Below are positions 15,598-46,033 of a stretch of DNA of 64,000 nucleotides, in pieces; position 1 is the stretch's first letter; each line of letters begins with the position of its first letter. Below the pieces are notes generated by a model that worked only from the letters and a program-made list of their open reading frames with translations, had not been told where the DNA came from and ran no database searches. The position numbers and the translations under genes are program-made. This DNA is from an uncultured Myxococcales bacterium (GTDB lineage Bacteria; Myxococcota; UBA727; VGSZ01): contig CAZONM010000001.1 of the NCBI GenBank assembly GCA_964580865.1, positions 2,825 to 66,824 of the forward strand, written 5' to 3'.

Positions 15598-15616
15598 GAT
15601 AACGATTATCACAATC
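15598..15616. promoter_or_regulatory. Fur-box-like operator GATAACGATTATCACAATC (15/19 match to GATAATGATAATCATTATC) 30 nt upstream of the 15645 gene
   Basis: Seen directly in an AT-rich patch within otherwise >70% GC DNA; core inverted repeat GATAA-CGA-TTATC. Confidence 0.45.
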
Positions 15617-15644
15617 ACAACACGATCGCCACCACGGGACCCGC

Positions 15645-16457: not shown

Positions 16458-16475
16458 TCGCGAGGAGCGCGCACC

Positions 16476-16844
16476 GTGGCAGCACCGTCACCGTCGACCC
16501 GAGCAGGCGCCATCGCCCTGGCGGCGCTGGCGCTCGTCGTGGCGACGGCGTGCGCCACGCTGGCCGAGCCCACGCCCGTGGACGCGGCGTGGGCCGCGAC
16601 GCGCTGGCCCGACGCCACCGAGGATGAGCTCCGGCGTGGGCGCGCGCTCTACGTCAAGCGCTGCGCGGGCTGTCACGCGCTGCGCCTGCCCGAGCGCTAC
16701 CCGTCGAGCACCTGGGCCGAGCACGTCGATGAGATGGCCAAGCGCGCCAAGCTGCCCGGCGACGAGCGCGAGGTGATGCTGCGCTACCTCGTGACCATGA
16801 GCCGGCCCGATCGGCCCACGGAGGTCACCGCCTCGTCGCGCTGA
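16476..16844 (+). CDS. mono-haem c-type cytochrome lipoprotein
   Basis: Lipobox VATAC; single haem-binding CAGCH motif; 122 aa. Confidence 0.7.
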   Translation: MAAPSPSTRAGAIALAALALVVATACATLAEPTPVDAAWAATRWPDATEDELRRGRALYVKRCAGCHALRLPERYPSSTWAEHVDEMAKRAKLPGDEREVMLRYLVTMSRPDRPTEVTASSR

Positions 16845-16982: not shown

Positions 16983-17000
16983 TGTAAGTAGCGTGTAAGT
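16983..17000. promoter_or_regulatory. direct repeat TGTAAGT-N4-TGTAAGT in an AT-richer patch ~90 nt upstream of the dihaem cytochrome/nar operon
   Basis: Read directly (gtTGTAAGTagcgTGTAAGTcgcc); it lies in the 240-bp intergenic region. Confidence 0.35.
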
Positions 17001-17086
17001 CGCCGGTGTTACCCACCGACCGTCAAGCCAGCGCTCCATCGCGTCCACCACGGGCGCGAGCAGGCGGCGCCGGAGGTCTGGTGGGT

Positions 17087-17965
17087 ATGACCAAGCACAG
17101 CACCAAGCACAGCCTTCTTCCACGGCGACTCACGGCCCTCGCGGCCGCGGCGGTCGCATGCGCGTTCTCGGCCCCGGCCAACGCGGCCACGGGCGAGGAG
17201 AACTACGCGAAGATCTGCGCCGCCTGCCACTCCATCGGTGGCGGCAGGCTCGTGGGCCCCGACCTCGCTGGCGTGACCACGCGCCGCTCCGAGGAGTGGC
17301 TCGTCAAGTTCATCAAGTCGCCGAAGGCCATGATCGACGCCGGTGACGCCGACGCCGTGGCGCTGTTCAAGGAATACAACCTGGTGATGCCCGACCCGCA
17401 GTACACCGAGGCGGAGATCAAGGACATCGTCGCGTACCTCGCCACCAAGAGCGGCGCCGCCGCCGTGGCGCCCACGCCGCCGCCGCCGCCCAAGGAGGCG
17501 TCGCCGGCCGAGATCGCGCGCGGCCAGAACCTGTTTCAGGGCCTCGAGCGCCTGAAGAACGGCGGCCCCGCCTGCAACTCGTGCCACCACGTCAAGAACG
17601 ACGCCGTCATCGGCGGCGGCGTCTTGGCCAAGGAGCTGACCACGGTGTTCAGCACCATGGGCACGCCCGGCATCAACGCCATCCTCGGCAAGCCGCCCTT
17701 CCCGGTGATGGCCGCCGCCTACGCCGAGCACCCGCTCACCGACGACGAGTCGGCCGCGCTCGTCGGCTTCCTGCAGGACGCCGACAAGAAGCACGAGCTG
17801 CAGCAGCCGCGCGACTACGGCTTCCGCCTGGTGTGGAGCGGCGCCGCCGCGCTGGTGCCGCTCATGGGCCTGTACTCGCTCATCTGGCGCAAGCGCAAGG
17901 TGCGCCCCGTGAACGAGAAGGTCTTCGATCGTCAGGTCAAGGGCGGCGACGACGTCGCGCAGTAA
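17087..17965 (+). CDS. dihaem c-type cytochrome with a C-terminal membrane anchor (NarC-like, nitrate-reductase-associated)
   Basis: ORF 17006..17965; ATG at 17087 gives the signal peptide MTKHSTKHSLLPRRLTALAAAAVACAFSAPANA; two CxxCH motifs (CAACH, CNSCH); C-terminal TM AAALVPLMGLYSLIW; 56 nt upstream of narG. Confidence 0.75.
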   Translation: MTKHSTKHSLLPRRLTALAAAAVACAFSAPANAATGEENYAKICAACHSIGGGRLVGPDLAGVTTRRSEEWLVKFIKSPKAMIDAGDADAVALFKEYNLVMPDPQYTEAEIKDIVAYLATKSGAAAVAPTPPPPPKEASPAEIARGQNLFQGLERLKNGGPACNSCHHVKNDAVIGGGVLAKELTTVFSTMGTPGINAILGKPPFPVMAAAYAEHPLTDDESAALVGFLQDADKKHELQQPRDYGFRLVWSGAAALVPLMGLYSLIWRKRKVRPVNEKVFDRQVKGGDDVAQ

Positions 17966-18021: not shown

Positions 18022-21000
18022 ATGAGCTGGATTCAGGACATCATCTCGCCCGAGACGCGCCAGTGGGAGGAGTTCTACCGGAACCGCTTCCAGCACGACC
18101 GCATCGTGCGCAGCACCCACGGCGTGAACTGCACGGGCGGTTGCTCGTGGCAGATCCACGTCAAGGACGGCATCGTCGTGTGGGAGACGCAGCAGCTCGA
18201 CTACCCGCTGCTCGAGGACTCGCTGCCGCCCTACGAGCCCCGCGGCTGCCAGCGCGGCATCTCGTACTCCTGGTACTTGTACAGCCCGCTGCGCATCAAG
18301 TACCCGCTGATCCGCGGCGCGCTCCTCGACGCGTTCGAGAAGGAGAAGGCGGCCGCCAAGGGTGACGCCGTCGTCGCGTGGGAGAACCTGCAGAAGGATC
18401 CGAAGAAGCGCCAGAGCTACCAGACGGCGCGCGGCAAGGGCGGCTTCCGCCGCACCACGTGGGACACCGTGCTCGAGCTCATGGGCGCGGCCAACATCTA
18501 CACCGCCAAGAAGTACGGCCCCGATCGCGTGTTCGGCTTCTCGCCCATCCCGGCGATGTCGATGCTCTCCTACGCGGCGGGCGCGCGCTTCCTGCAGCTG
18601 TTCGGCGGCGTCAACCTGAGCTTCTACGACTGGTACTGCGACCTGCCCACGGCGTTCCCCGAGATCTGGGGCGAGCAGACCGACGTGTGCGAGAGCGCCG
18701 ACTGGTACAACTCGAAGCTCATCGCCGACATGGGCGCGTGCCTCAACATGACGCGCACGCCCGACTGCCACTTCTTCGCCGAGGCGCGCCACAACGGCAC
18801 CAAGGCGGTGGTGTTCTCGCCGGACTTCAGCCAGGTCTGCAAGTACGCCGATCAGTGGGTGCCCCTGCACGCCGGCAGCGACGCGGCGTTCTGGATGGCC
18901 ACCACGCACGTGGTGCTCAAGGAGTTCCACCACGACAAGGCCACGCCGTACTTCATCGACTACTGCAAGAAGTACACGGACAGCCCGTACCTGGTGCACC
19001 TCGACAAGGAGGGCGATCACTACAAGCCCGGTCGCCTGGTGCGCGCCAACGAGATCGCCAAGTGGAAGGATCTCGACAACGGCGACTGGAAGTTCCTGAA
19101 CATCGACGGCAAGTCGAACGAGCTCGTCATCCCCAAGGGCAGCATGGGCCACCGCTGGGACAAGACCCAGGGCAACTGGAACATGCTCCACGAGAACGCG
19201 GCCGACAACAAGCCGTACGACCCGATGCTGACGCTGCTCGGCAACCGCGACGACACGCTCGCCTGCGAGTTCACCGAGTTCGGCCTCGACAAGACCGTGC
19301 TGCGCAACGTGCCCGTGCGCATGCTCGAGACCGCCAACGGCAAGGTGCCGGTCACCACGGTGTACGACCTGATCATGGGTCAGTACGGCGTGGGCCGCGG
19401 GCTGCCGGGTGACTACCCGAAGGACTACACCGACAAGAACCAGGCCTACACGCCGGCGTGGCAGGAGATCTTCACCGGCATCGACTCGAAGACGGTGCTG
19501 CAGTTCGCGCGCGAGTGGGCCAACACCGCCGAGACCACGCAAGGCAAGTGCATGGTCATCGTCGGCGCCGGCATCAACCACTGGTACCACGCGAACCTGA
19601 TGTACCGCTCGGCGGCCATGGCGCTGATGCTGTGCGGCTGCGTGGGTCGCAATGGTGGCGGCCTCAACCACTACGTCGGGCAAGAGAAGCTGGCGCCCGT
19701 CGACTCGTGGGCGTCCATCGCGTTCGCCAAGGACTGGCAGGGCCCGAGCCGCCTGCAGCAGGCGCCCCTGTGGCACTACATCAACACCTGCCAGTACCGC
19801 TACGACGGGCAGTTCTCCCGCTACAACGCCGTGCCGAAGAACGAGCGCACGTCGATGCACACGGCGGACACGATCTTCCAGTCGGTGCGCAACGGCTGGA
19901 TGCCCTTCTACCCGCAGTTCGAGGCTAGCCCCATCGAGCTGTGCAAGGACGCGGAGAAGGCCGGCGCCAAGAGCGACGCCGACATCGTCAACCACGTGGT
20001 GGGCAAGCTGAAGGACAAGTCGCTCGGCTACTCGGTCGGCGACCCCGACAGCGAGAAGAACTTCCCGCGCGTTTGGTACATCTGGCGCGGCAACGCGATC
20101 ATGGGCTCCATGAAGGGCCACGAGTACGCGCTCAAGCACTACTTGGGCACGCACTCGAACGCCATCGGCAAGGACAGCGACGAGCACCCGAAGGAAGTGA
20201 AGTGGCACGACGTCGCGCCCACCGGCAAGATGGACCTGATCGTCGACCTGAACTTCCGCATGGATTCGTCGGCGCTCTACTCCGACATCGTGCTGCCGGC
20301 GGCCTCTTGGTACGAGAAGGCCGACCTGAACTCGACCGACCTGCACTCGTTCATCCACCCGCTCTCGGCCGCCGTCGCCCCCGTGTGGGAGTCGAAGTCC
20401 GACTGGGAGATCTTCAAGGCGCTCGCCAAGGCGACCTCCGACGCCGCCAAGGTGCACCTGCCCGGCGTGCAGAAGGACATCGTGGCCACGCCGCTGTCCC
20501 ACGACAGCGCCGATGAGATCACGCAGCCGCGCATCAAGGATTGGTATCGCGGCGAGTGCGAGCCCGTGCCCGGCAAGTCGATGCACAAGCTCGGCGTGGT
20601 CGAGCGCGACTACACGAAGCTGTACGAGAAGTACGTCACGTACGGCGAGGGCGTCCGCAAGAGCGGCCTCGGCGCGCACGGCACGCACTACCGGTGCGAG
20701 GAGGAGTACGACCAGCTCCTCTCGTCGAACCACTTCCCGAAGGAGACGTTCAACGGCAAGGTCTATCCGTCGCTCAAGGAGGACAACCAGGCGGCCAACG
20801 TGCTCCTGCACATGTCCACCCTGACCAACGGCGCCTGCACCGTGAAGGCGTACCAGGAGATGGAGAAGAAGACCGGCCTGAAGCTGGTCGACCTCGCCGC
20901 CGGCTCCGAGGACGTGCGCATCACCTACGAGGACCTGCAGGCGCAGCCGCGGCGCTACAACACGGCGCCGGCGTGGTCGGGCCTGATGAACAACGGCCGC

Positions 21001-21639
21001 GCCTACGCGCCCTACACGTACAACTACGACAAGATGGTGCCGTGGCGCACGCTGACGGGCCGCCAGCACTTCTACCTCGACCAGGATCTGTACCTGGCCT
21101 ACGGCGAGCACCTGCCCACCTACAAGCCCTCGCCCAAGCCCGAGGCTTACGGTGACCTGAAGGAGACGTTGAAGGGTGGCCAGGCGCTGGCGCTCAACTG
21201 CCTGACGCCGCACGGCAAGTGGCACATCCACTCGACGTACATGGAGAACCACCGGATGCTCACCCTGTCGCGCGGCTGCGAGCCGTGCTGGATGAGCGAG
21301 GTGGACGCGCAGCAGCTCGGTATCCAGGACAACGACTGGGTCGAGGTCTACAACGACCACGGCGTGTACTGCACGCGCGCGTCGGTGAGCTCGCGTATCC
21401 CGCGCGGCGTGTGCATCGTGTACCACGTGCCCGAGCGCACCGTGGGCATCCCGAAGTCGCAGGTGCGCGGCAATCGGCGCGCCGGCGGTCACAACAGCTT
21501 TACGCGTATCCACCTCAAGCCCAACTACTTGAGCGGCGGCTACGGGCAGTTCAGCTACCACTTCAACTACTGGGGTCCCATTGCGCCGCAGCGGGACACG
21601 CACGTGGTCGTGAAGAAAATGACCAAGGTCGTCTTCTGA
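18022..21639 (+). CDS. narG: respiratory nitrate reductase alpha subunit NarG
   Basis: 1205 aa; N-terminal [11 protein letters not shown] Fe-S motif and molybdopterin-oxidoreductase domains along the full length. Confidence 0.97.
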
Positions 21640-21652
21640 GGAGAGGTGAGAG

Positions 21653-23203
21653 ATGGATATCAGAGCGCAAACGGCGGTGGTCTTTCACCTCGACAAGTGC
21701 ATCGGCTGCCACACCTGTTCGATCGCGTGCAAGAACATCTGGACCGATCGTAAGGGTGCCGAGTACCAGTGGTGGAACAACGTCGAGACCAAGCCCGGCA
21801 CGGGCTATCCCGGCAAGTGGGAAGACCAGAGCATCTACAACGGCGGTTGGGTCAAGGACGCGAACGGTCGCATCCAGCTCAAGGGCGCCGGCAAGAAGAA
21901 GGGCCTGCTCAACATCTTCCACAACCCGTCGTTGCCGACGGTGGAGGACTACTACGAGCCCTTCACGTACAACTACCTGAACCTGATCGAGGCGCCCCCG
22001 GGCAACGATCAGCCCACGGCGCGCCCGGTCTCGCTCATCACCGGTGAGCCCATCGACGTGAAGATGGGTCCCAACTGGGACGACGACCTGTCGGGCACGC
22101 CCGACTATGCGCGGAACGACCCGAACCTCGCGGCGCTCACGCCCGCCGAGCGCCAGGCGATGTTCCAGCTCGAGCGCATGGCGTTCTTCTACCTGCCGCG
22201 CATCTGCAACCACTGCCTGAACCCGGGCTGCGTGGCGTCGTGCCCGTCGGGCGCCATCTACAAGCGCGGTGAGGACGGCGTCGTCCTCATCAACCAGAAG
22301 GTGTGCCGCGCCTGGCGCATGTGCGTCACCGCGTGCCCCTACAAGAAGAGCTACTACAACTGGCACACCGGCAAGTCCGAGAAGTGCATCCTGTGCTACC
22401 CGCGCATGGAGGCGGGCTACGCGCCCGCGTGCATGCACTCGTGCGTCGGTCGCATCCGCTACATCGGCGTCATCCTGTACGACGCCGACAAGATCGAGGC
22501 GGCGGCGTCGGCGGAGCCGAAGGACCTGGTGGCCCGTCAGCTCGACCTGTTGATGGACCCGTTCGACGACAAGGTGATCGCCGCGGCCAAGGCCAACGGC
22601 ATCGCCGACTCGACCATCAAGGCCGCGCAGAACTCGCCCACCTTCAAGTTCATCAAGCAGTGGGGCATGGCGCTGCCGCTGCACCCCGAGTTCCGCACGC
22701 TGCCGATGCTGTGGTACGTGCCCCCGCTCCTCCCCGTCATGGCGTCGGTCACCCAGACCGACGGCGCGCAGAAGGAGAAGCTCAACCCCATCGCCAAGAC
22801 CTGGACCGACAACTGGCTCTACGACACCTCCACCGAGGAGCTGTGGGGCACGGTCGAGCAGGCGCGCTTCCCGCTCAAGTACCTCGCGAGCCTGTTCGCG
22901 GCGGGCGAGACCGGCGAGGTCTCGATGCGCCTGAAGAAGCTGATGGCGGTGCGCATCTACCGTCGTTGGAAGACCGTGGGCGACATCCCCGAGGCGCGCA
23001 TGACCAAGGCGCTCAAGGAGACGGGCCTCACGCAGGAGTCGGCCGAGGCGATCTTCTATTTGACCGCGCTCGCCAAGTTCAACGATCGCTTCGTCATCCC
23101 GCCCGCGCACCGCGAGCAGGCGATGGAGATGCTCGAGTTCACCGGCGACGTGAAGGGCTCCACGGGCTTCGGCTTCCGTGAGAAGCCCGAGCGAGGCATG
23201 TGA
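21653..23203 (+). CDS. narH: respiratory nitrate reductase beta subunit NarH
   Basis: 516 aa; four Cys clusters (CIGCHTCSIACK, CNHCLNPGCVASCP, CRAWRMCVTACP, CILCYPR...). Confidence 0.97.
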   Translation: MDIRAQTAVVFHLDKCIGCHTCSIACKNIWTDRKGAEYQWWNNVETKPGTGYPGKWEDQSIYNGGWVKDANGRIQLKGAGKKKGLLNIFHNPSLPTVEDYYEPFTYNYLNLIEAPPGNDQPTARPVSLITGEPIDVKMGPNWDDDLSGTPDYARNDPNLAALTPAERQAMFQLERMAFFYLPRICNHCLNPGCVASCPSGAIYKRGEDGVVLINQKVCRAWRMCVTACPYKKSYYNWHTGKSEKCILCYPRMEAGYAPACMHSCVGRIRYIGVILYDADKIEAAASAEPKDLVARQLDLLMDPFDDKVIAAAKANGIADSTIKAAQNSPTFKFIKQWGMALPLHPEFRTLPMLWYVPPLLPVMASVTQTDGAQKEKLNPIAKTWTDNWLYDTSTEELWGTVEQARFPLKYLASLFAAGETGEVSMRLKKLMAVRIYRRWKTVGDIPEARMTKALKETGLTQESAEAIFYLTALAKFNDRFVIPPAHREQAMEMLEFTGDVKGSTGFGFREKPERGM

Positions 23204-23898
23204 TGCTGCGCGTATCCCTCTACGACGCGCTCGCCGCGGTCTTCGCCCACCCAGGTCCGAGCTACCTCTCGGACCTGGCGCGGGCCATCACCGCGCTCGA
23301 GCACGAGTACCCCAAGGCCGCGGAGCAGCTGCGCGAGCTCGAGCGCCTCTTGCCCAAGGGCAACGCGCTCGCGCTCGAGGAGCTGTTCACCCGCACGTTC
23401 GACGTGCAGCCCATCACGTCGCTCGACGTGGGCTACACGCTGTTCGGTGAGGACTACAAGCGCGGCGCGCTGCTCGCAAACCTGAGCCGCGAGCACACGG
23501 TCGCGAAGAACGACTGCGGCGCCGAGCTGGCCGACAACCTCGGCAACGTGCTGCGCCTCTTGCCCCGCTGGACCGACGCCGCCGTGCGCGACGAGTTCGT
23601 GCACGTGCTGCTCGGCCGAGCGGTGGCGGAGATGATCCGCGAGTTCGAGCCCGCGCGACTCGCGAAGAAGGAAGAGATCTACAAGAAGCACCACAAGACC
23701 ATCATCGAGACCTTCGAGGGTGAGACGCGCGTGGCGTACCGCCACGCGCTCGGTGCGCTGTTCACGGTGCTCAAGGCCGACTTCGGCGTGAAGGTCGGGC
23801 TGCCCGTCGCCAACGAGTCGACGTTCGTCGCCGCCGTGGGCGCCGAGATGGGCATCGAGGGCGACGAGAGCTGCAACTCCTCCTGTGGCGTGAAGTGA
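23200..23898 (+). CDS. narJ: nitrate reductase molybdenum cofactor assembly chaperone NarJ
   Basis: 232 aa; start overlaps the narH stop (ATGA); NarJ/TorD family in the canonical position between narH and narI. Confidence 0.85.
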   Translation: MMLRVSLYDALAAVFAHPGPSYLSDLARAITALEHEYPKAAEQLRELERLLPKGNALALEELFTRTFDVQPITSLDVGYTLFGEDYKRGALLANLSREHTVAKNDCGAELADNLGNVLRLLPRWTDAAVRDEFVHVLLGRAVAEMIREFEPARLAKKEEIYKKHHKTIIETFEGETRVAYRHALGALFTVLKADFGVKVGLPVANESTFVAAVGAEMGIEGDESCNSSCGVK

Positions 23899-23905: not shown

Positions 23906-24637
23906 GTGATGGAACTGTCGAACGTCTTTCTGTTCGTGGGCTTGCCCTACGCCGCGATGGTGATCTTCCTCCTGGGGACCATCCAGCGCTACCGCAACAA
24001 GGGCTTCAAGGTGTCGTCGTTGTCCTCGCAGTTCCTCGAGGGCAGGGCGCTGTTCTGGGGCATCGTGCCCTTCCACTTCGGCATCCTGGTGCTGTTCCTC
24101 GGCCACCTGTCGGCGTTCCTGCTGCCTGGTCCCACGCTCATGTGGAACGCCGACCCGATGCGGCTCATCACGCTCGAGATCACGGCCTTCGCCTTCGGCC
24201 TGTCCACGCTCGTGGGCTTGGCAGCGCTGTTCGTGCGCCGCCTCACCAACGTGCGCATCAAGATGGTGACGACGAAGATGGACATCTTCCTCGAGCTCCT
24301 GCTCTTGGTGCAGGTGGTGTTCGGCCTGTGGGTGGCCGTGGGCTATCGCTGGGGCTCGTCGTGGTTCGCCGCCGACCTGACTCCCTACCTGTGGTCGCTG
24401 TTCAAGGCCGACCCAAACATCCTGGCCGTGAGCGCCATGCCGTGGCCCATCAAGGTCCACATCGTGGGCGCGTGGCTCATCATCGGCATCTTCCCCTACA
24501 CCCGCCTCGTGCACTTCCTGGTGGCGCCGCTGCACTACATCACCCGTCCCTACCAGCGCGTGATGTGGAACTGGGATCGCAAGGCCATCCGCGACCCGCG
24601 CACGCCGTGGAGCGCGATGCGCCCGAAGAACAACTGA
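23906..24637 (+). CDS. narI: respiratory nitrate reductase gamma subunit NarI (dihaem cytochrome b)
   Basis: 243 aa; 5 TM helices with conserved His residues (HFGILVLFLGH, ...HIVGAWL...HFL). Confidence 0.9.
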   Translation: MMELSNVFLFVGLPYAAMVIFLLGTIQRYRNKGFKVSSLSSQFLEGRALFWGIVPFHFGILVLFLGHLSAFLLPGPTLMWNADPMRLITLEITAFAFGLSTLVGLAALFVRRLTNVRIKMVTTKMDIFLELLLLVQVVFGLWVAVGYRWGSSWFAADLTPYLWSLFKADPNILAVSAMPWPIKVHIVGAWLIIGIFPYTRLVHFLVAPLHYITRPYQRVMWNWDRKAIRDPRTPWSAMRPKNN

Positions 24638-24656: not shown

Positions 24657-25343
24657 GTGAGCGATCTGATCCAGATTGGCGATAAGGGCGGTGATCCCGT
24701 CCGTCGGCAAGAAGAGCGGGGCTGCGACCAGCCCGACGGTCTCAGCCCCATGGACCCGCCCGACGCGTACGCGCCGCCGGGCGAGGTCCCGGGCGACGAG
24801 GCCGACCTCGCGAAGCGCCATGGCTACCTGCGCGCGCTCACGGGTGACCACGCGCGACTGATGGAGGCCATGGCGCTCGTCGAGGAGAAGCTCGCCAACG
24901 TGAGGGAGACGGGCTTCACGCAGGCCGCCGACGTGGCGGTGATGCGCTTTCTGGAGACCTTCGACCGCGAGTTCATCGCGCACAGCCGCGAGGAAGAGGC
25001 GCGGCTGTTCCCGCTCTTGCACGAGCGCCTCATCGCCGCCGGTGAGCACAGCAAGAGCCGCGTGATCACCACGGCCATCGACGTGATGAAGGACGAGCAC
25101 CTGAAGGCGGTGCAGCTCGCCGCCGTGGTGCTCAACCTGGTGCGCGTGGCGTCGGTGCTGCCCGACGAGAAGTCGGCGCAGCTCGTGGTCAACGCCGCGC
25201 TCGGCGAGCTCACGAAGCTCGTCGAGCTCTTGCGCCTGCACATCTTCCGCGAGGACGGCATCGTCTTTGCTCGTGCGCAGGGCCTGCTCTCCACCGCCGA
25301 GCTCGACGCCATGGGCGCCGCCGGCAGGAGACGCGACGGGTAG
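24657..25343 (+). CDS. hemerythrin-like (HHE cation-binding) domain protein
   Basis: 228 aa; H-x-x-x-E / HxE spacing (AHSREEEARLFPLLHERL, MKDEHL); embedded between narI and narK. Confidence 0.6.
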   Translation: MSDLIQIGDKGGDPVRRQEERGCDQPDGLSPMDPPDAYAPPGEVPGDEADLAKRHGYLRALTGDHARLMEAMALVEEKLANVRETGFTQAADVAVMRFLETFDREFIAHSREEEARLFPLLHERLIAAGEHSKSRVITTAIDVMKDEHLKAVQLAAVVLNLVRVASVLPDEKSAQLVVNAALGELTKLVELLRLHIFREDGIVFARAQGLLSTAELDAMGAAGRRRDG

Positions 25344-25358: not shown

Positions 25359-26876
25359 ATGGAAGAAGTCGCGAGCGCCAAGTCACACAAGGCCCTGGTG
25401 CTAAACACCCTCGCGTTCACCGCCTGCTTCGCGGCGTGGATGCTGAACGGTGTGTTGGTCACGTTCCTCACCAACAACCAGGTGTACCCGTGGGGGCCCG
25501 TCGAGATCGGCTGGCTCATGGGCATCCCCGTGTTGACGGGCTCGCTCTTCCGCCTGCCTGCCGGGCTCCTCACCGACAAGTACGGCGGCAAGCCCGTGTT
25601 CACGGCCATGCTGATGTTCTGCGCGGTGCCCATGTACCTGCTGAGCACCGTCGACTCCTTCCTCGGCTTCGCTCTGTGTAGCTTCGGCTTCGGGCTCACG
25701 GGTGTGGGCTTCTCTATCGGCATCGCGTTCACCTCGGTGTGGTACCCGAAGAAGAACCAAGGCACGGCGCTGGGCATCTTTGGCGCCGGCAACGCCGGCG
25801 CGTCGCTGTCGACGCTGTTCGCGCCCACGCTGCTCAACCGCTTCACCAACGGCGGCGTCGACCTCGAGGGCTGGCGCATGTTGCCGAAGGTGTACGCGGC
25901 GATGCTGCTCGGCATCGGCGTGTTGTTCCTGATCTTCTCCACCAACAAGAAGCCGACCGCGACGAAGCTGACCCTCAAGCAGCAGCTCGAGCCCCTCAAG
26001 TCGGTGCGCGTGTGGCGCTTCGGCCTCTACTACTTCCTGGTGTTCGGGTGCTTCGTCGCGTTCTCGCAGTGGCTGGTGCCGTACTTCGTCAACGCCTACT
26101 ACATGCCGCTCGTCACCGCCGGCATCCTGGCCTCACTCTTCAGCTTCCCCTCGGGCGTGATCCGCGCGCTCGGCGGTTGGCTGTCGGACAAGTTCGGCGC
26201 GCGCCGCGTGATGTTCTGGGTGTTCGCCACCTCGTGCATCATCAGCGCCGCCGTCATCGTGCCGAAGATGGAGATCTACTCGCCCGGCCGCGGCGTCATG
26301 GCCATGCGCCCGGGCGTGGTGAGCGAGGTGAACTACGGCAGCATCACCGTGGGTCCCGACACCTACAAGCTCCAGCCCAAGCCCACCGAGCTCAAGACCT
26401 ACGACGAGACCATGGCCATCTTCCCCGGCAAGGAGACGTGGCAGGAGCCCGCCGTGGTGGTGGGGCAGAAGGTGCAGAAGCGCGAGCTCTTGGCCAAGGG
26501 CGTCACGCGCATCTTCTTTCAAGCCAACGTGTGGATCTACGCGTTCCTGGTCATGGTCATCGGCATCATCTGGGGCATCGGCAAGGCCGGCGTCTACAAG
26601 TACATCCCCGACTACTTCCCGCAGCAGGTGGGCGTGGTCGGCGGCATGGTCGGCGTCATCGGCGGCCTCGGGGGCTTCGTGTGCCCCATCCTGTTCGGCT
26701 ACCTGCTCGACTGGACCGGCCTGTGGACGAGCTGCTGGATGCTGATGCTGGCGCTGTCGATCGCATGCCTGTGGTGGATGCTGCGCGTGGTGCGCATCAT
26801 CGAGAAGAACGCCGCGCCCCAAGTGGCGCAGAGCTTCGAGCAGACGCCCGAGAAGCCAAGCAGCAACGGTTCGTGA
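25359..26876 (+). CDS. narK: nitrate/nitrite transporter NarK (MFS, NNP family), NarK1-type
   Basis: 505 aa; 12-TM MFS with NNP signature (GFGLTGVGFSIGIAFTSVWYP, GIFGAGNAGAS). Confidence 0.9.
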   Translation: MEEVASAKSHKALVLNTLAFTACFAAWMLNGVLVTFLTNNQVYPWGPVEIGWLMGIPVLTGSLFRLPAGLLTDKYGGKPVFTAMLMFCAVPMYLLSTVDSFLGFALCSFGFGLTGVGFSIGIAFTSVWYPKKNQGTALGIFGAGNAGASLSTLFAPTLLNRFTNGGVDLEGWRMLPKVYAAMLLGIGVLFLIFSTNKKPTATKLTLKQQLEPLKSVRVWRFGLYYFLVFGCFVAFSQWLVPYFVNAYYMPLVTAGILASLFSFPSGVIRALGGWLSDKFGARRVMFWVFATSCIISAAVIVPKMEIYSPGRGVMAMRPGVVSEVNYGSITVGPDTYKLQPKPTELKTYDETMAIFPGKETWQEPAVVVGQKVQKRELLAKGVTRIFFQANVWIYAFLVMVIGIIWGIGKAGVYKYIPDYFPQQVGVVGGMVGVIGGLGGFVCPILFGYLLDWTGLWTSCWMLMLALSIACLWWMLRVVRIIEKNAAPQVAQSFEQTPEKPSSNGS

Positions 26877-26898: not shown

Positions 26899-28341
26899 AT
26901 GATGACGACGAGCACGGCAGCGGAAGGCGCGCGGGTGGGTGGGCTTGCGGGGTGGCTGCCGGCGTGGGCGCCCGAGGACGCGCAGTTCTGGGCCGCCGAG
27001 GGCAAGAGGCGCGCGTGGCTCACGCTCACGCTCACCACGCTCGGGCTCATCGCGTCGTTCGCCACCTGGTTCGTCTTCAGCGCGGTGGCCGTGCGCCTGC
27101 CGAACATCGGCTTCACGTTCGACACCATGCAGCTGTTCTGGTTGAGCGCCATGCCCGGGCTCTCGGGCGGCTCGCTGCGGCTCATCCACAGCTTCCTCAC
27201 GCCCATCTACGGCACGCGCCTCACGGTGTCGGTGGCGACCTTCCTCAAGATCTTCCCCATGCTCTGGCTCGGCGTCGCGGTGCAGAACCCCGACACGCCC
27301 TACTCGAGCTTCCTCATCATCGCGTTCCTGTGCGGCATGGGCGGCGGCGACTTCTCGTCGTTCATGCCCTCGACGTCGATGTTCTTTCCGAAGCGCCTGC
27401 AGGGCACGGCGCTCGGCCTGCAGGCCGGCATTGGCAACCTCGGCGTGTCGATCGTGCAGTTCGTGACGCCGTGGATCATCGGCTTCCCGCTGTTGTCGGC
27501 CTTCGGCGGGCCGCAGCCCTTCGTCAAGGGCGAGGTGCACAAGGACATCTGGCTGCAGAACGCGGCCTTCTGGTACGTGCCCTACCTCGCGCTCGCGGGC
27601 GTGCTGTGCTTCATGTTCTTGCGCTCGGTGCCGGGCAAGAAGCCGGCGGTGGGCGACATGTTGAAGAGCATGGTGAGCGACCGCCACGTGTGGTTCTGCG
27701 TCATCACCTACGTCATGACCTTCGGCACCTTCTCGGGGCTCGCGGCCGCCTTCCCGCTCATGATCAAGTCGATCTACGGCGGCTTCCCCGACGCGCCCGA
27801 CCCGCTCAAGTACGCCTTCCTCGGCCCGCTGGTCGGCTCCGCCGTGCGCTTCATCGGCGGGCCGCTGGCCGACAAGTTCGGCGGCAGCATCTGGACCCAG
27901 ATCTCCGGCGCCGGCCTCATCCTCGGCAGCCTGGCGCTCATCTTCGGCGGCTACCTGACGCCCACGGGCCTCGAGCAATTCTCGGGCTTCGTGTGGATCA
28001 TGCTCTTCCTCTTCCTCTCGGCCGGCATCGGCAACTTCGCCACCTTCCGCCAGTACCCCATCGTCTTCGCGTACGACGCCAGGAAGGGTGCGCAGGTGCT
28101 CGGCTGGACGGGCGCCTGGGCCGCCTACGGCCCCCTGCTGTTCTCGTCGCTGATCGGTGCGAGCATCTCGACGTTCGGCTCGGCCAAGGCCTTCTTCTGG
28201 GGCGCTTGCGCCTTCTTCGTCGTCGGCAGCGCCATCAACTGGTGGTGCTACACGCGGCCGGGCGGCGAGCGCTGCGACTACGGCTCATGGAAGGGCACGT
28301 GGTGGGACAAGGCCAAGGACACCTGGCCCACCAAGAGCTGA
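26899..28341 (+). CDS. narK: second nitrate/nitrite transporter, NarK2-type antiporter (MFS, NNP family)
   Basis: 480 aa; MFS NNP signature (GMGGGDFSSFMPSTSMFFPKRLQGTALGLQAGIGNLG); tandem narK1-narK2 layout. Confidence 0.9.
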   Translation: MMTTSTAAEGARVGGLAGWLPAWAPEDAQFWAAEGKRRAWLTLTLTTLGLIASFATWFVFSAVAVRLPNIGFTFDTMQLFWLSAMPGLSGGSLRLIHSFLTPIYGTRLTVSVATFLKIFPMLWLGVAVQNPDTPYSSFLIIAFLCGMGGGDFSSFMPSTSMFFPKRLQGTALGLQAGIGNLGVSIVQFVTPWIIGFPLLSAFGGPQPFVKGEVHKDIWLQNAAFWYVPYLALAGVLCFMFLRSVPGKKPAVGDMLKSMVSDRHVWFCVITYVMTFGTFSGLAAAFPLMIKSIYGGFPDAPDPLKYAFLGPLVGSAVRFIGGPLADKFGGSIWTQISGAGLILGSLALIFGGYLTPTGLEQFSGFVWIMLFLFLSAGIGNFATFRQYPIVFAYDARKGAQVLGWTGAWAAYGPLLFSSLIGASISTFGSAKAFFWGACAFFVVGSAINWWCYTRPGGERCDYGSWKGTWWDKAKDTWPTKS

Positions 28342-28342: not shown

Positions 28343-30592
28343 TCACGACCGCAGCGGCCGCGCGGCCGCGCTTGCGCGCCGCCGCTTGGCGTCTGCCCCG
28401 TCACCGCGCGCCGCCCTCTGCGCGAGCCCACGAATGCGGTGCGAGAGCGCCAAGAGCTCGGGCGACGCCTCGGCGTCGAGCTCACCCTCGAGCAGGCGGC
28501 GGTGCTCCTCGAACGCGGCCTGCGCCTCGCGCGGCCGCCCGAGCTCCTGCAAGAGCTCCATCTGCGCGATCAACAGGTCCTCGCGGAACGGGCTCGCGCG
28601 CAGCGCGCGCCGCCAGCAGGAGAGCACCTTCTCGTGGTTGCCCTGGGAGCGATGCACGCGCGCCAGGCGCTCGAGCGCGTCGATGTACGCCTCGCGCAGC
28701 GCGGCGCGCTCGGCGTCGCACCACTCGGCGAACGGCTCGTCGGCGAACAGCTCGCCGCGGTAGGTGTCGACCGCCTCCTCGAGCGCGGCCGCCGCCTCGG
28801 GCGCGCCCTCGTCGTCGCCGCGCACGCCGCGCGCCAGCGCTTGGCGGAAGCGCACCAGGTCCACGTCGATGGGGCCGCTCATGTCGAGGTAGTACAGCTC
28901 GCCGCGGTTACGCACGTACTTCCAGTCGCGGTCGGTGCGGCTCGGCTCGATCACCGAGCGCAGATCGTGCACCACGCCGTGCAGGCGGTTCGCGCCTTGG
29001 CGCGGCTCCACCTCGGGCCACAGCTGCTCGATGAGCACGTCGCGGTTGACGGGCGCGCCCGCGTTGAGCGCCAAGAGCTTGAGCAAGACGAGCGCCTTGC
29101 CGCGCGTGAAGCTCTCGGCGGGGATGGGCTGGCCACGTCGCCACACGGCGAAGGGCCCGAAGCAGCGCAGCTCGAGCTCGGGCGCCACCCCGCCGCCGAT
29201 GGCTACGAGCTCGCCGCTCTCGCCCGTCGCGCGCACCGCCACGCCGGTCGCATGCCCCTGCAGGCGGATGGCGAGCTGGCTCGCCATGCACAGGAGCGGC
29301 ACCAGGCGCGCATGCGTGTGCTCGGGCGCCGCGCGGCCGAAGTCGAGCACCACGAGCCCGTGCAGGCGCCCGTTGGCGACGAGCGGCAGGCAGCAGGGGC
29401 TGACGGCGCGCCGCGGCAGTCCACAGCGGCATGCCTCGGGCCACTCGCGGCGCCCGGGCTGCGCGGCCACGCCGTGCGCCGCGAGCAGCGACGTGCAGCT
29501 CGCGAGCGCGCCGCTCTCGGCGTGCGCGCACACGAGCGAGGCCGGGCCGGTCGACACCACGCGGCTCGGGCGATCGGTGGTGGGATCGATGAGCGCGAGC
29601 GTGCCGTACTGGGCGCCCGCCACCTGCTTCATCAGCTCCAGCACCGCGCGCAGCTGGCGGCCGCCGTCGTCGAGGTCGCCGCACACCGCGTCCACCGACT
29701 GGCGCAAGGCGGCCAGGCCCGCGCGCACCGCGCTCGCCATCGGCACCGCGGCGCGCTCCAAGAGCTCCTGCACGCGGTCGACGGGAAAATCGTCGCGCCG
29801 CGACAGGAGGTGCAACGAGCCGAGCACGCCGCGCGCGTCGGGGAGCGGCACGGCCACCAGCGAGCGGATGCCCGCCTCCACCACGCTCGTGCGCAGGTAG
29901 CGCGGATCGTCGCCCAAATTGCCCCTGCGCGCGATGGGCAGCCCCGTGGCCACCACCAAGCCCGGGTACCCTGCGCCGGCGGAGAAGCGCGTGCGTGTCA
30001 CCAGCGCGTCGTCGTCAGGGCCCGTCCACACGCACAAGAGCGGGTCGCGGCCCTCGGGCTCGCACAGGAAGATCTCGGCGTCGTCGGCGCCGGTGGCGCG
30101 CACCAACACGCGCAGCGCGCGCCGCAGCCCCTCGAGCATGTCGTCGGAGGCCACGGCCGCCGCCACCTCGCCCACGATGGCGGCGACGTTGAAGTCGCCG
30201 GCCACGTCGTCGAGGACCAGGGCGCGCTTGACCACCGTGCGCAGCTGATCGTTGGCGAACGGCTTCGCCAGGTAGTCGCACGCGCCCGAGCGCATGGCCT
30301 CGACGGCCGAGTCGATGGTGCCGTAGCCGCTCATGAGCGCGACCTTGGTGAGCGGCCAGTGCTGGCGCGCGTGGCGCAGCAGCTCGAGGCCGCTCATGGC
30401 GGGCAGCACCACGTCGCACAGCACCAGGTCGAACTCGGCCTCGCGCAGGCGCTCGAGCGCGTCCTCGGCGCTGTGCACGGCCTCGGCGGCCACGCCCTCG
30501 AGCGCCAGGCGCTCCACGATCACGGCCGCGACCTCGTGGTGATCGTCGACGACGAGGAGGCGCGCGGGGCGGGGCGCTGGCACGAGCGGCAC
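28343..30592 (-). CDS. multi-domain regulator: receiver (REC) - GAF - GAF - OmpR-type winged helix - BTAD (SARP/AfsR-like)
   Basis: 749 aa. REC: LLVVDDHHEV...DLVLCDVVLPAMSGLELL...KPF. Two GAF-like segments at ~150-450. wHTH: LRCFGPFAVWRRGQPIP...GKALVLLKLLALNAGAPVNRDVLIEQLWPE. BTAD/TPR-like tail: VDTYRGELFADEPFAEWCDAERAALREAYIDALERLA. Confidence 0.8.
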   Translation of the reverse strand: MPLVPAPRPARLLVVDDHHEVAAVIVERLALEGVAAEAVHSAEDALERLREAEFDLVLCDVVLPAMSGLELLRHARQHWPLTKVALMSGYGTIDSAVEAMRSGACDYLAKPFANDQLRTVVKRALVLDDVAGDFNVAAIVGEVAAAVASDDMLEGLRRALRVLVRATGADDAEIFLCEPEGRDPLLCVWTGPDDDALVTRTRFSAGAGYPGLVVATGLPIARRGNLGDDPRYLRTSVVEAGIRSLVAVPLPDARGVLGSLHLLSRRDDFPVDRVQELLERAAVPMASAVRAGLAALRQSVDAVCGDLDDGGRQLRAVLELMKQVAGAQYGTLALIDPTTDRPSRVVSTGPASLVCAHAESGALASCTSLLAAHGVAAQPGRREWPEACRCGLPRRAVSPCCLPLVANGRLHGLVVLDFGRAAPEHTHARLVPLLCMASQLAIRLQGHATGVAVRATGESGELVAIGGGVAPELELRCFGPFAVWRRGQPIPAESFTRGKALVLLKLLALNAGAPVNRDVLIEQLWPEVEPRQGANRLHGVVHDLRSVIEPSRTDRDWKYVRNRGELYYLDMSGPIDVDLVRFRQALARGVRGDDEGAPEAAAALEEAVDTYRGELFADEPFAEWCDAERAALREAYIDALERLARVHRSQGNHEKVLSCWRRALRASPFREDLLIAQMELLQELGRPREAQAAFEEHRRLLEGELDAEASPELLALSHRIRGLAQRAARGDGADAKRRRASAAARPLRS

Positions 30593-30595
30593 CGG

Positions 30596-31615
30596 TCAGC
30601 CCCCGATCCGCGACATCCCGATGGTGGTGATGGCGCCTTCGCTCCACGCGTGGCCCATGGGCTTGAGCGCGGCCGCGCTGGTGAAGCGCGCCTCGATGAG
30701 CGCCTCGTCGCGCGCGCGCGCGGCGTCGCGCAGGGGCACGCTCACCTCGTAGGCCAGGCACGGGCGCAGCTCGCCGGTGGAGGTGAGGCGGAAGCGGCTG
30801 CACGAGTCGCAGTAGCGATCGGAGATGGGCGTGATGAACCCCACCACGCCGAGCGCGCCCGGGATGCGCCAGTAGCGCGCCGGCCCGTTGCCCGGCAGGC
30901 CGCTCGTCGACACTAAGCCGTAGTCGGCCGTGAGCCGCTGGCGCACCTTGGTGAGGTCGACGTAGCGCTCGGCGAGGTTCTGCGCCGCGCCCTCGCCCAC
31001 GGGCATGAGCTCGAGCAGGCGCACCACCAGATCGTGCTCGCGCGTCAGCTCCACCCAGGCGTCGATCTCGTCGTCGTTCATGCCCTTCAAGACCAGCACG
31101 TTGATCTTGAGCGGCCGCAGGCCCGCGCCGGCGGCCTTGCGCACGCCGCGCCACACGTCGTCGAGGGAGCCGTTGCACGTGATGGCGCGGAAGCGCTCGG
31201 GCTTGAGCGAGTCGACGCTGACGGTGAGGCGATCGAGCCCGGCCGCGGCCAGCTGGTCGACGTGGCGCTCGAGCAGCATGCCGTTGGTGGTCATGGCCAC
31301 CTCGCGCACGGTGGTCTCGCGCTTGAGCTGGGCGATGAGGTCGGGCACGCCGGCGCGCACCAGCGGCTCACCGCCGGTGATGCGCACGCGGTTGACGCCG
31401 AGGCGGCTCGCCACGCGCACGATGGCGGTGATGTCGTCGAACGACAGCAGCTCGTCGGGCCGCTCGAAGGCGTGCAGCCCGCGCGGCAGGCAGTACTCGC
31501 AGCGCAGGTTGCAGCGATCGGTCACCGAGATGCGCAGGCTCTTGACCGTGCGGCCGCAGCTGTCGGCCAGCGTGGCCCCGCCACCCGTGCGCCCCGTTGC
31601 GAGCTCACCCGCCAT
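30596..31615 (-). CDS. moaA: GTP 3',8-cyclase MoaA (molybdenum cofactor biosynthesis, radical SAM)
   Basis: 339 aa; radical-SAM CNLRCEYC cluster and C-terminal CDSCSRFRLTSTGELRPC cluster; GGEPL motif. Confidence 0.93.
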   Translation of the reverse strand: MAGELATGRTGGGATLADSCGRTVKSLRISVTDRCNLRCEYCLPRGLHAFERPDELLSFDDITAIVRVASRLGVNRVRITGGEPLVRAGVPDLIAQLKRETTVREVAMTTNGMLLERHVDQLAAAGLDRLTVSVDSLKPERFRAITCNGSLDDVWRGVRKAAGAGLRPLKINVLVLKGMNDDEIDAWVELTREHDLVVRLLELMPVGEGAAQNLAERYVDLTKVRQRLTADYGLVSTSGLPGNGPARYWRIPGALGVVGFITPISDRYCDSCSRFRLTSTGELRPCLAYEVSVPLRDAARARDEALIEARFTSAAALKPMGHAWSEGAITTIGMSRIGG

Positions 31616-41649: not shown

Positions 41650-43300
41650 CGGAATCGATCGTACATGTAGAATCATCGTACATCCTCGCCGCGTCGGTCC
41701 TCACAGCCGAGCAGACCCGTGGCCGAGCAAGTTGGTCGACGCGTCCACCCACTCGCCCAGCGTCGAGCACGCGACCCGGAAGCCTCGCGCTTGAAGATGC
41801 CCTCCTGCCGGTGCAGCGGGATGTTGTCGCAGAACTTCACCACCAGCACGAGCGCCAGGAACCCGGGCTCCACCATCGACTTCGAAATCGTGCGCTCCGG
41901 CATGTCGGCGATGAAGACGCGGGTGGCGGCACCAAGCAGCGGCGGCAGCGACGTCGGCGATTGCGCCGGCTGCGACGGCGCCGCGTCCGCCCGCGCAGGT
42001 TCCGGCGCTGTGTACTCCTCGCGCACCAGCTCGATCCTCACCTTCGACGCCGTGATCCGCTCGATGAGCTGCGTCTTCTCTTCGCCGATCTTGACGAGCC
42101 GCTCACCACCGGGCGCGAGCCGCTCTGGGGGGACGAGCACGAACCGACGAGGTGGCAGATCCTCGAGCGCGAGCTTGCGCCGGCCGCGCGGCGACGGCTC
42201 CTTGTTCGTGCTCGCCGACCGCCCCGCCTTCGCACCGGCGATCGCCTTGGCGGCCTGGTCAGCCGCCCGCTGCGCCTCGTCGAGCGCGCCCACGTCGCCG
42301 GCCCGCATGCTGCCGATCGTCGCCAAGAACTCGAACAGCGGCAGTTACGCTTCCTCGTGCCGCACCCGCTCGGCCTTCTGCCCGAACGCCAGGCGCTACA
42401 ACAGCTCGTGCTCCAACAGGAGCTTGTCGTACGCCGTGCATCAGTGCGTCGAGCATCGCCACGGTCTCGAGGTGGCGGGCACGCAGTGTGTTGACGTCGG
42501 CGGGCTCCTCGTTCACGTCGTCATCTATCGACTCCCCGAGGAGGTTGGGGAGGAAATCGGCACGCGCGTACGCTGTTGGCGAGGGCGTTGACCGCGCGCT
42601 CGGTGGCCACGTCCTGCTTTGTTCGCACGGCGACGGCGCCCACCAGGCACCAAGCCGTCCATTGAGCAGGGCATGTCGATGGGTTCGAGCGCAGCCAGGG
42701 TCCGTCGTCCGCTGGGGACCATACGCGCTCCAAGGCTGCGAAAACGCGGATGAGCTCGGCATCGATGAACGCGGGCGGCACTCGCACGACGCGTCCGTTG
42801 GCGAGCGCGACTTGATGCGCTCGCGCTCCAGGTGGCCGGTGACAGCCGCCACTACCTCGACGAAGGTCCCTTCCACTTCAAGAGTGCGGCCGACCCCGAG
42901 CGCGATCTCGGCGACCCGAGGAACCATCGCCACCAGGCGAGCGTCGCCGGCTTCACGCGCCCGCACGCCGCGAACGCGTCCCGCGACGGGCCGCTCCTCG
43001 AACACCGCGCCCCTCGGCGCGCCACACGTCGCTGGACTCCCTCGCCATGCGTCACCTCCGCGCGCGCCACCACGCGGCGCGGCGGCGCGGGTCACTACGT
43101 GGTTGTCGGTTGTAGACGGGCACGCGCACGACTCCGGCGAGGCCAGGCGTGACGACCAGTACTGCCGCTCCCCACGGTGGGCACGGATCGTCAGCTGCGG
43201 GCCGACCGGAGCGGCGAAGATCATGCGACCAGCTCTACCGCCCCGCACGCGATCAGTTCACCCACCCGTTGACATCCCGCTGAGCGCGACAGCCTCCCAG
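41650..43300 (-). mobile_element. degenerate IS66-family insertion sequence remnant (frameshifted and truncated; no intact transposase)
   Basis: Broken ORFs only. The 41673..42326 reading frame is clearly TnpC-like; a direct repeat ATCGTACAT...ATCGTACAT lies at 41658..41683 at its truncated end; the region sits exactly at the GC-content transition. Confidence 0.5.
41673..42326 (-). pseudogene. IS66-family transposase (TnpC) N-terminal fragment, inactivated
   Basis: LPPRRFVLVPPERLAPGGERLVKIGEEKTQLIERITASKVRIELVREEY corresponds to the TnpC zinc-finger region but has lost the CxxC cysteines; PGFLALVLVVKFCDNIPLHRQEGIFKREA matches the conserved PGLLAHVLVSKYADHLPLYRQ block; the DDE catalytic domain is absent because the frame ends at the wbpE-like gene. 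Confidence 0.5.
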
Positions 43301-43401
43301 CGCTTCGCGAAGGCGCCTCCACTGGACATCGACGCCGTCGATGATATCGACGAACCCGGCTGCTGGGATGGCCAGCGATGCCTGGCTGGAGGTCGCCTCC
43401 C

Positions 43402-44571: not shown

Positions 44572-44585
44572 GCGGAGTGCCACTC

Positions 44586-46018: not shown

Positions 46019-46033
46019 CGAGGACGATCCTCC

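Follow-up and report, generated by a model that had tools for sequence, protein, structure and literature searches.

What controls nitrate respiration where the nar genes lie beside a regulator that combines a phosphorylation domain, two sensor domains and the DNA-binding module of an antibiotic-cluster activator? The question is raised by a 64,000-nucleotide stretch of DNA from an uncultured Myxococcales bacterium (assembly GCA_964580865.1, contig CAZONM010000001.1, positions 2,825 to 66,824; hereafter the window), in which a plus-strand nar cluster converges on a minus-strand gene for a 749-residue regulator. Most of what is understood about the control of respiratory nitrate reduction comes from FNR/NarXL and NreABC, with DnrS/DnrT of Thermus as the outlier. 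The reading favoured here, at a probability of roughly 60%, is that the protein is a Streptomyces antibiotic regulatory protein (SARP)-type activator of the narC-narGHJI-hemerythrin-narK1-narK2 genes that belongs to the DnrS family and has a receiver fused to it, and that it would integrate phosphorylation with an oxygen or nitric oxide (NO) input taken up by a cysteine-bound, probably iron–sulphur (Fe–S), cofactor.

The true coding frame of the regulator is the open reading frame (ORF) at 28343-30592 on the minus strand, where G+C content is 0.96 at third codon positions (GC3) and 0.50 at second positions (GC2), a signature missing from the long ORFs that overlap it in other frames. A public gene call (P0001, 726 amino acids) begins at an internal GTG, with V24 read as M, and its start drops strand 1 of the receiver alongside the acidic pocket formed by D16 and D17; alignment of all homologues supports the longer, 749-residue start. 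The order receiver (REC), GAF, GAF, winged helix-turn-helix (wHTH), BTAD had been proposed by an earlier reading made from the nucleotide sequence and its ORFs (the sequence-only reading), and it is borne out by Pfam hidden Markov models, which place Response_reg at residues 13-121 (E 6e-26), GAF/GAF_2 in two stretches, Trans_reg_C at residues 499-562 (26.7 bits; cut-off 26.2) and BTAD at residues 577-721 (E 3e-23). When the domains were scanned singly, the first GAF domain (GAF-A) scored 35 bits and the second (GAF-B) 28.6 bits, exactly the GAF_2 cut-off. An AlphaFold2 model of the full protein, with a predicted local distance difference test score (pLDDT) of 83.3, resolves the same five folded units. 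The best NCBIfam matches of the receiver are those of AtoC and NtrC, and Foldseek matches it to the FleR and NtrX receivers at a template modelling score of 0.9. It has the intact acidic pocket, acceptor aspartate, Ser/Thr and Lys of a two-component receiver: D16, D17, D60 (the acceptor), S88 and K110 are all present, and D16, D17, D60 and K110 are nearly invariant in a family alignment of 33 sequences. At the other end of the protein an OmpR-type winged helix is followed directly by the BTAD, the arrangement of the SARPs; against PDB sequences this module matches the SARP domain of AfsR (8hvr, E 2.6e-11) and EmbR (3.6e-9), Foldseek aligns the protein with AfsR at a template modelling score of 0.71, and the family alignment shows hardly any change in the recognition-helix region ANRLHGVVHDLRSVIEP. 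The top Foldseek match of the full model is the cyanobacteriochrome histidine kinase 6oap, which likewise has a receiver followed by a cofactor-binding GAF domain and joins phosphorylation and a second signal in one chain, but has a kinase output and a bilin in its GAF domain, and neither a SARP module nor a link to nar.

Much of this architecture is found in DnrS, described as the GAF and BTAD-containing master activator of the narCGHJIK operon of Thermus thermophilus, which is needed for transcription from Pnar, is sensitive to oxygen and has its conformation altered by it (PMC5748679, PMC6282519, PMC7694296). When the window protein without its receiver was searched by tblastn against a plasmid collection, it matched a 'GAF domain-containing protein' of Thermus megaplasmids (E 1e-23 to 3e-27; ~30% identity, with 80% of the query covered) and proteins of Deinococcus plasmids at E 4e-31; in the reverse search, residues 120-591 of the 601 in DnrS matched the window gene (30% identity, E 2.8e-36). 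In T. thermophilus SG0.5JP17-16 the homologous gene is divergent from narC-narGHJI and a major facilitator superfamily (MFS) gene, and is followed by a Crp/Fnr gene, a layout that is identifiable as the published dnrST operon. The window protein is thus, by sequence, a homologue of DnrS over GAF-A, GAF-B, the wHTH and the BTAD. GAF-A has the conserved motifs GADDxEIFLxEP, GYPG and DPRYLR in common with DnrS, a cysteine set stands in the second GAF-like region of both proteins (in DnrS this GAF is not detected by Pfam), both genes lie beside a narC-narGHJI-narK operon, and neither neighbourhood holds FNR or NarXL. The targets are alike as well: because the narC product shares 33% identity with Thermus NarC (E 5e-27; residues 19-256 of 262), NarG is 58% identical to its Thermus counterpart and narC stands ahead of narG, the window operon can be assigned from its sequence to the Thermus narCGHJIK(T) type, and the products of narK1 and narK2 match the MFS protein of the Thermus nar cluster. 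In a Thermus review narC is described as absent from the nar operons of mesophiles; genes for a membrane-anchored dihaem cytochrome of the NarC type were also seen in four loci of relatives (L003, L016, L018 and L020). The architecture is therefore not unprecedented, since DnrS is a GAF and BTAD-containing nar regulator and a homologue of the window protein without the receiver. The claim that BTAD regulators lack GAF domains and that this would be an undescribed nar regulator is right only in part; no paper on a REC, GAF and BTAD nar regulator was found in the literature. In place of the receiver, DnrS has an N-terminal segment of ~110 residues with four cysteines (a PAS domain in many relatives).

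The family to which both proteins belong is large. An exhaustive search with the receiver-less query (clusters at 50% identity, E <=1e-30) gave 217 representatives of DnrS-like proteins, and the domains of the best 150 were parsed. Most of these show GAF-A, GAF-B and the SARP module, whilst in 54 sequences, the window protein and Thermus DnrS among them, the N-terminus is extended by at least ~90 residues, mostly as a PAS domain with 4-6 cysteines. A receiver like that of the window protein was found in only three representatives among the best 150, so that the receiver fusion marks, on this census, a small clade inside a large DnrS-like family. One of the three (P0122, 705 amino acids) has a receiver (Pfam E 1e-9) without the DD pocket and the acceptor aspartate (…LVLAGVPAG…), and in this lineage the domain seems to have turned into a pseudo-receiver. 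The cysteine-rich PAS start (…G.PC.EV..G.D..GRP.C...CP…) is seen in many relatives, for example P0135, P0154 and P0224, and the N-terminus of Thermus DnrS (L022:11596-11925) is a comparable four-cysteine segment that Pfam does not call as PAS. We presume a likeness between this PAS domain and the Cys4 Fe–S PAS domain of NreB; DnrS-like proteins with the cysteine-rich N-terminus may have two separate cysteine-based sensor sites. On a plasmid of Deinococcus sp. D7000 a receiver-less homologue (L023:11890-13545) adjoins NarK/NasA transporter genes, and its neighbours include genes for a molybdopterin oxidoreductase with Rieske and 4Fe-4S partners; the reach of the family may extend to nitrate reductases of the assimilatory or another type.

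Relatives that carry the receiver were sought among 5.8 billion proteins. About 50 full-length relatives with 47-87% identity were found, after which the score drops sharply to receiver-less proteins; all come from metagenome-assembled genomes (MAGs) labelled Deltaproteobacteria, Myxococcales or Polyangiaceae or, in a few cases, Gemmatimonadota or Acidobacteriota, and some family members bear the JGI name 'two-component SAPR family response regulator'. Ten loci of relatives (44-87% identity) could be read, nine of which encode the receiver-bearing form; the tenth, L003, from a Gemmatimonadetes MAG, encodes a receiver-less protein with 44% identity directly upstream of narC. In all ten, nar genes adjoin the regulator, in three gene orders (convergent on narK, upstream of narC, or downstream of narK/moaA), and the link to nitrate respiration drawn in the sequence-only reading is upheld by this comparison. 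In 7/9 receiver-bearing loci the regulator gene is directly preceded by a histidine-kinase gene, and the two genes overlap in six loci, mostly by 4 nt. The kinase has a PilS-like region of six transmembrane segments, a PAS domain, HisKA and HATPase_c; in L018 (8241-9886) it is split into two ORFs of 322 amino acids (transmembrane) and 225 amino acids (HisKA) with no HATPase_c listed, which could reflect decay of the kinase or a frameshift in the assembly. For the family as a whole, this neighbourhood identifies the regulator as one predicted partner in a two-component system linked to nar. A second signal, delivered by a kinase, is implied by the receiver and was absent from the earlier account, and the protein is best described, from its sequence, as a receiver-fused and usually kinase-partnered variant of the DnrS kind, known only from MAGs; such a kinase partner is a further difference from DnrS.

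The window protein and the two exceptions (L001 and L013) form one clade with at least 82% identity, in which moaA takes the position of the kinase gene; in most relatives moaA lies elsewhere in the nar cluster and the kinase gene stands there. The TGA of moaA is followed by 3 nt and then by the GTG of the regulator, and the stop codons of the regulator and narK2 have 1 base between them, so that the adjacency with moaA and the convergence with narK2 stand as first described, with the distances of 4 nt and 2 bp corrected. Because of the 3-nt gap and the identical layout in L001 and L013, co-transcription of moaA and the regulator is plausible, and this clade probably transcribes the two genes together, as had been proposed; linkage to moaA is not a family trait, given that most relatives have the kinase gene in that place. 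The 118-bp spacer ahead of moaA is probably the promoter region of both genes: TTGACC and a short GC hairpin within it are conserved with L013, and scans of the region upstream of moaA for a sigma-70 consensus promoter or a terminator found none. No cognate kinase gene lies next to the window gene, and the regulator of this clade would, on its gene neighbourhood, rank as an orphan response regulator. A single kinase is encoded in the window, a hybrid histidine kinase (HATPase_c and REC) at 62961-63998 on the minus strand that is cut off by the window end; it was rejected as the cognate kinase, being a generic match (30-38%) to the nar-linked kinases of the relatives and not an orthologue.

A predicted operator was found in front of narC, composed of two 11-bp direct repeats, TGTAAGTAGCG and TGTAAGTCGCC. 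The box starts 104 bp ahead of the narC ATG, and its 3' heptamer is followed at a distance of 8-9 bp by a -10-like hexamer that starts with TA. The 64-kb window holds no second match, even when one mismatch is allowed, against a chance expectation of 0.006 per 64 kb for the exact degenerate motif. The box recurs upstream of narC in 5/5 loci that are readable there (the window, L003, L016/L017, L018 and L020), whilst the sequence around it in the relatives has diverged beyond alignment, and a weight-matrix scan of ~130 kb of relative loci without the narC promoter gave no hit of at least 14 bits. SARP sites are described as direct repeats spaced at 11 or 22 bp, the 3' one of which lies 8 bp from the -10 element (PMC10936776). 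The geometry of the narC box fits this rule, and the box is predicted to be a SARP-type operator in the narC promoter. In that promoter no sigma-70 consensus and no recognisable -35 element were found by scanning, as expected for an activator-dependent promoter. The proposed role of the regulator as an activator of nar is thus well supported by homology to DnrS, by nar linkage and by the predicted operator. The OmpR-type wHTH and BTAD module and the operator layout (an 11-bp period, with the 3' repeat 8-9 bp from the -10-like hexamer) are shared with the SARPs AfsR, ActII-ORF4, DnrI and EmbR. Those proteins, however, are mostly actinobacterial and act in antibiotic clusters, and their extra domains, if any, are C-terminal (NOD/TPR) or FHA, whereas the window protein comes from Myxococcota-like MAGs, is linked to respiration and carries an N-terminal receiver and tandem GAF domains. 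Extra TGTAAG boxes stand 45-60 bp ahead of a narK-like MFS gene (L018:6636-6657) and of a gene for a SLAC1-family anion channel (L016:7319-7340), which suggests that the predicted regulon includes separately transcribed nitrate/nitrite transport genes. By the Deinococcus homologue, a TGTTAG…TGTAAG box (L023:4758-4779) was seen 39 bp upstream of the nitrate-transporter/molybdoenzyme operon.

The second GAF domain is marked by its cysteines. C355, C366, C388 and C401, all inside GAF-B, are invariant in 33/33 members of the family alignment, and C400 is nearly so; of the four, three (the first, the second and the fourth) are in register in the homologues from Thermus (DnrS) and Deinococcus, where the third is one column off. 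Among 128 representatives of the wider family, cysteine is found at the position of C366 in 116, of C388 in 119 and of C401 in 114 (with Glu in 8 others, a 'VEVPL' subgroup), such that three of the four cysteines are kept in 89-93%. The four invariant cysteines, together with the reported oxygen sensitivity of DnrS, point to a cofactor site for redox or oxygen (and perhaps NO) sensing. Sequence and profile searches with GAF-B against the PDB sequences gave nothing significant. Fe–S sites tolerate exchange of Cys for Glu, and Fe–S sensors such as Fnr of Bacillus subtilis use three cysteines and one carboxylate. FNR has the Crp fold and in NreB the cluster sits in a PAS domain; the logic predicted here, with a cysteine-ligated, oxygen-sensitive cluster gating genes of anaerobic respiration, would be the same. 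A GAF domain that binds an Fe–S cluster has a precedent in CSK/Hik2 (PMC6949291). The window protein has no sequence relationship to FNR, NreB or CSK/Hik2, and the ligand cysteine of CSK stands at another position than those of GAF-B. Because DnrS is reported to be oxygen-labile, CSK/Hik2 provides a precedent and Fnr shows ligation by three cysteines and one carboxylate, ligation of an Fe–S cluster by the GAF-B cysteines is the most economical and the most likely reading of the motif.

Other uses of these cysteines have to be weighed. They could bind zinc in a structural site or act as a thiol/disulfide redox switch, with oxygen or oxidants sensed through oxidation of the cysteines, or be without a sensing role; four conserved cysteines suit zinc as well as they suit Fe–S, and the first position varies in the wider family. 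Oxygen lability and inactivity in Escherichia coli are typical of labile Fe–S proteins. For DnrS an oxygen-driven change in conformation and a failure to become active in E. coli have been reported in the Thermus papers, neither of which favours a structural site or a thiol switch. The Glu that one subgroup has at the fourth position is a misfit for a disulfide switch as well, though zinc would tolerate it, and the motif sits where other GAF domains hold their cofactor, as judged from the GAF fold and the predicted positions of helices and strands. This explanation survives best among the alternatives and is nevertheless unlikely.

Somewhat more doubtful is the proposal, made in the sequence-only reading, that the two GAF domains take up a ligand directly. 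This might be nitrate, by analogy with NreA, a cyclic nucleotide, or NO on a mononuclear iron of the NorR kind, and the protein would then be mainly a sensor of nitrate or NO and not of oxygen or redox state. GAF-A is indeed a canonical, well-conserved GAF domain without a cysteine motif, the structural neighbours of GAF-B include GAF domains that bind cyclic nucleotides, and DrpA/DrpB were not found in the window, so that something else must report nitrate. However, sequence searches of the PDB with GAF-A or GAF-B returned neither NreA nor NorR, Pfam found no NorR-type AAA+ domain in the window protein, and no evidence for binding of this type emerged; conservation in GAF-B is highest at the cysteine set and not at a pocket for nucleotide or nitrate. 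The homologue DnrS, moreover, responds to oxygen, whilst nitrate acts in Thermus through a separate system, DrpA/DrpB (Thermus papers). A tetrapyrrole (haem or bilin) in GAF-B, perhaps attached covalently through a cysteine and sensing oxygen, NO or CO in the manner of DosS/DevS, is improbable: DosS/DevS-like GAF domains share no more than 20% identity with GAF-B and would be matched by any GAF domain, no conserved His ligand stands out (H373 is Arg in many relatives), and four conserved cysteines exceed what covalent attachment needs. Least probable of all is that synthesis of the molybdenum cofactor (through moaA) or another regulon is the main target and the nar position incidental, or that the protein represses nar, since probable co-transcription with moaA in the window's clade and the capacity in principle of a protein bound at -35 to block RNA polymerase are outweighed by nar linkage in 10/10 relative loci and three gene orders against moaA adjacency in some only, by an operator that precedes narC and transporter genes and not moaA, by the fact that DnrS and the SARPs are activators, and by a narC promoter whose lack of a recognisable -35 fits dependence on an activator.

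On the favoured reading of a DnrS-family activator with two inputs, two protomers would bind through their OmpR-type wHTH to the two 11-bp repeats TGTAAGnnnnn at 16983-17004, in the -35 position of the narC promoter and just upstream of a weak -10, and the BTAD would recruit RNA polymerase, as has been shown for AfsR. The first input would be a cofactor on the four GAF-B cysteines, most likely an Fe–S cluster labile to oxygen and NO, the same sensing device as in Thermus DnrS; activity would require that this cofactor be intact, as a signal of anoxia or of low NO, and the protein would be active only under anoxia. The second input, also required, would be phosphorylation of D60 in the NtrC-type receiver, for which most relatives are predicted to use the histidine kinase with six transmembrane segments and a PAS domain that is encoded directly upstream; the kinase signal could be nitrate or nitrite, or the redox state of the membrane. 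In the window's clade, co-transcription would couple the supply of the regulator to the first step in making the molybdenum cofactor that NarG needs. More tentative, and less likely than not, is a further claim, that GAF-B is a previously unrecognised Fe–S or other metal-based sensor of oxygen or NO, common to DnrS and at least 200 clusters of relatives and standing in series with the receiver in the window's clade.

Several observations weigh against this account. The wider family is less uniform at the first cysteine, C355 being in register in only 84/128 representatives (many others have a cysteine a few residues away), and the AlphaFold2 model has a pLDDT of 65-76 over the cysteine segment, as might be expected of a site that folds around a cofactor. 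No kinase gene is adjacent in the window's clade, where the phosphate of the receiver could come from a distant kinase or from acetyl phosphate, or the receiver could go unphosphorylated. DnrS is co-transcribed with the Crp-family protein DnrT and works jointly with it, whereas tblastn found no DnrT homologue in the window; among the relative loci no Crp/Fnr (DnrT-like) gene was listed. A scan of the Thermus nar promoter found no TGTAAG box, so that operator specificity is not family-wide, and the Thermus recognition helix differs from ANRLHGVVHDLR, which is nearly invariant in the other proteins. As to control of the regulator's own expression, the weight-matrix scan found no operator copy in front of moaA and the regulator and none was found upstream of the kinase-regulator operons of relatives; there is therefore no evidence for autoregulation. 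Finally, all members of the receiver-bearing clade come from uncultured MAGs.

In the Thermus work the 'actual oxygen sensor ... is not known'; it is thought to lie within the GAF region, attempts at its biochemistry failed, and DnrS could not be rendered active in E. coli (PMC5748679, PMC6282519, PMC7694296). The DnrS papers of 2017-2020 cite the original work of 2007 and leave the oxygen-sensing mechanism open. A metal sensor in GAF-B would, if true, answer how DnrS senses oxygen, and one polypeptide would serve Myxococcota-like bacteria both as a one-component oxygen sensor and as a two-component response regulator for nitrate respiration. The comparison places DnrS in a large, mostly unstudied family whose members share the cysteine set in a second GAF domain that had gone unnoticed; one clade of it, in uncultured Myxococcota-like bacteria of soil and groundwater, appears to have swapped the N-terminal sensor for a receiver and to have acquired a partner kinase. 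What is new here is the receiver in place of the cysteine-rich PAS domain, the kinase partner in most relatives, the four-cysteine GAF-B and the predicted TGTAAG operator; with an operator and specific residues named, the mechanism can be tested and nar regulons can be predicted in metagenomes.

Table. Positions in the window of the regulator gene, its domains, the predicted control sites and the neighbouring nar and moaA genes.
Feature	Position	Strand	Description	Basis
Regulator gene	28343..30592	-	749 aa, GTG start; DnrS-family protein with an extra N-terminal receiver	ORF, GC3, Pfam, DnrS homology, AlphaFold2
REC	30215..30562	-	Residues 11-126; NtrC/AtoC type	Pfam, NCBIfam, Foldseek
GAF-A	29684..30187	-	Residues 136-303	Pfam (35 bits alone), AlphaFold2 model
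GAF-B	29258..29665	-	Residues 310-445; cysteine-bearing predicted sensor domain	
Cysteine motif in GAF-B	29390..29530	-	C355-x10-C366-x21-C388-x12-C401; predicted metal/Fe–S ligands	
OmpR-type wHTH	28862..29176	-	Residues 473-577	Trans_reg_C, AfsR/EmbR matches
BTAD	28367..28861	-	Residues 578-742; tetratricopeptide repeat (TPR)-like	Pfam (E 3e-23), PDB matches
moaA	30596..31615	-	GTP 3',8-cyclase; directly upstream of the regulator	TIGR02666, 331 bits
Spacer upstream of moaA	31616..31733	-	118 bp; likely promoter of moaA and the regulator	Comparison with L013
Predicted operator	16983..17004	+	22 bp, two 11-bp direct repeats; YGTAAG-N5-YGTAAG	
narC	17087..17965	+	NarC-like dihaem c-type cytochrome; first nar operon gene	Pfam Cytochrom_C
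narG	18022-21639	+		Pfam; 58% identity to Thermus NarG
narH	21653-23203	+		Pfam
narJ	23200-23898	+		Pfam; 39% identity to Thermus NarJ
narI	23906-24637	+		Pfam
Hemerythrin-domain gene	24657..25343	+	Between narI and narK1	Pfam Hemerythrin (E 3e-13)
narK1	25359-26876	+	MFS nitrate/nitrite transporter	Pfam MFS_1
narK2	26899-28341	+	MFS nitrate/nitrite transporter; convergent on the regulator	Pfam MFS_1

The identification of narGHJI and two narK genes on the plus strand was correct in the sequence-only reading, as was, for the ORFs scanned, the statement that no FNR/NarXL-type genes are visible: a tblastn search with DnrT and a Pfam scan of 20 further ORFs, drawn from outside the low-G+C stretch at ~42-50 kb, found no Crp/Fnr, NarL or NarX, and homologues of Thermus DnrT, DrpA/DrpB or of protoglobin were not found in the window by tblastn. 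The hemerythrin-domain gene is kept in five loci of relatives (L001, L002, L013, L019 and L021), and its product matches the RIC Fe–S repair family weakly (37 bits; cut-off 204.7); it could serve in NO protection or in the repair of Fe–S centres, possibly including that of the regulator. The nar operon has a lower G+C content (0.64-0.67) than its surroundings (0.72-0.74), and horizontal transfer was considered and rejected: its GC3, at 0.94-0.97, is as high as in the flanks, and the difference therefore comes from amino-acid composition. Just upstream of the nar promoter region, after a DUF6662 gene (15603-16457), lies a small ORF (16458-16844, 128 amino acids, GC3 0.90) that has no Pfam match and contains a single CxxCH motif (CAGCH).

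On the other side of the regulator, the gene upstream of moaA (31734 to ~33350, minus strand) was considered as a degenerate kinase and rejected, as it encodes a secreted protein with polysaccharide-export neighbours. The product, of ~540-560 amino acids, has no Pfam match, is 72% identical to a 562-residue protein of L013 and has an aromatic last residue (…SVAWRY); the gene adjoins GT4, Poly_export/SLBB and Wzz genes, and the protein may be the outer-membrane part of a polysaccharide export locus. Further along, a fragment of an IS66-family transposase (41673-42344) adjoins the stretch of low G+C content at ~42000-50000 (0.60-0.66 against ~0.71), in which no ORF passes the GC3 filter and which may be a mobile or foreign insert. 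Towards the start of the window, a GT20 (trehalose-6-phosphate synthase-like) gene and a GH15/trehalase-like gene stand back to back at 9924-13984, flanked by genes for Na+/H+ and Na+/Ca2+ exchangers; this looks like an osmoprotection cluster with no relation to the regulator.

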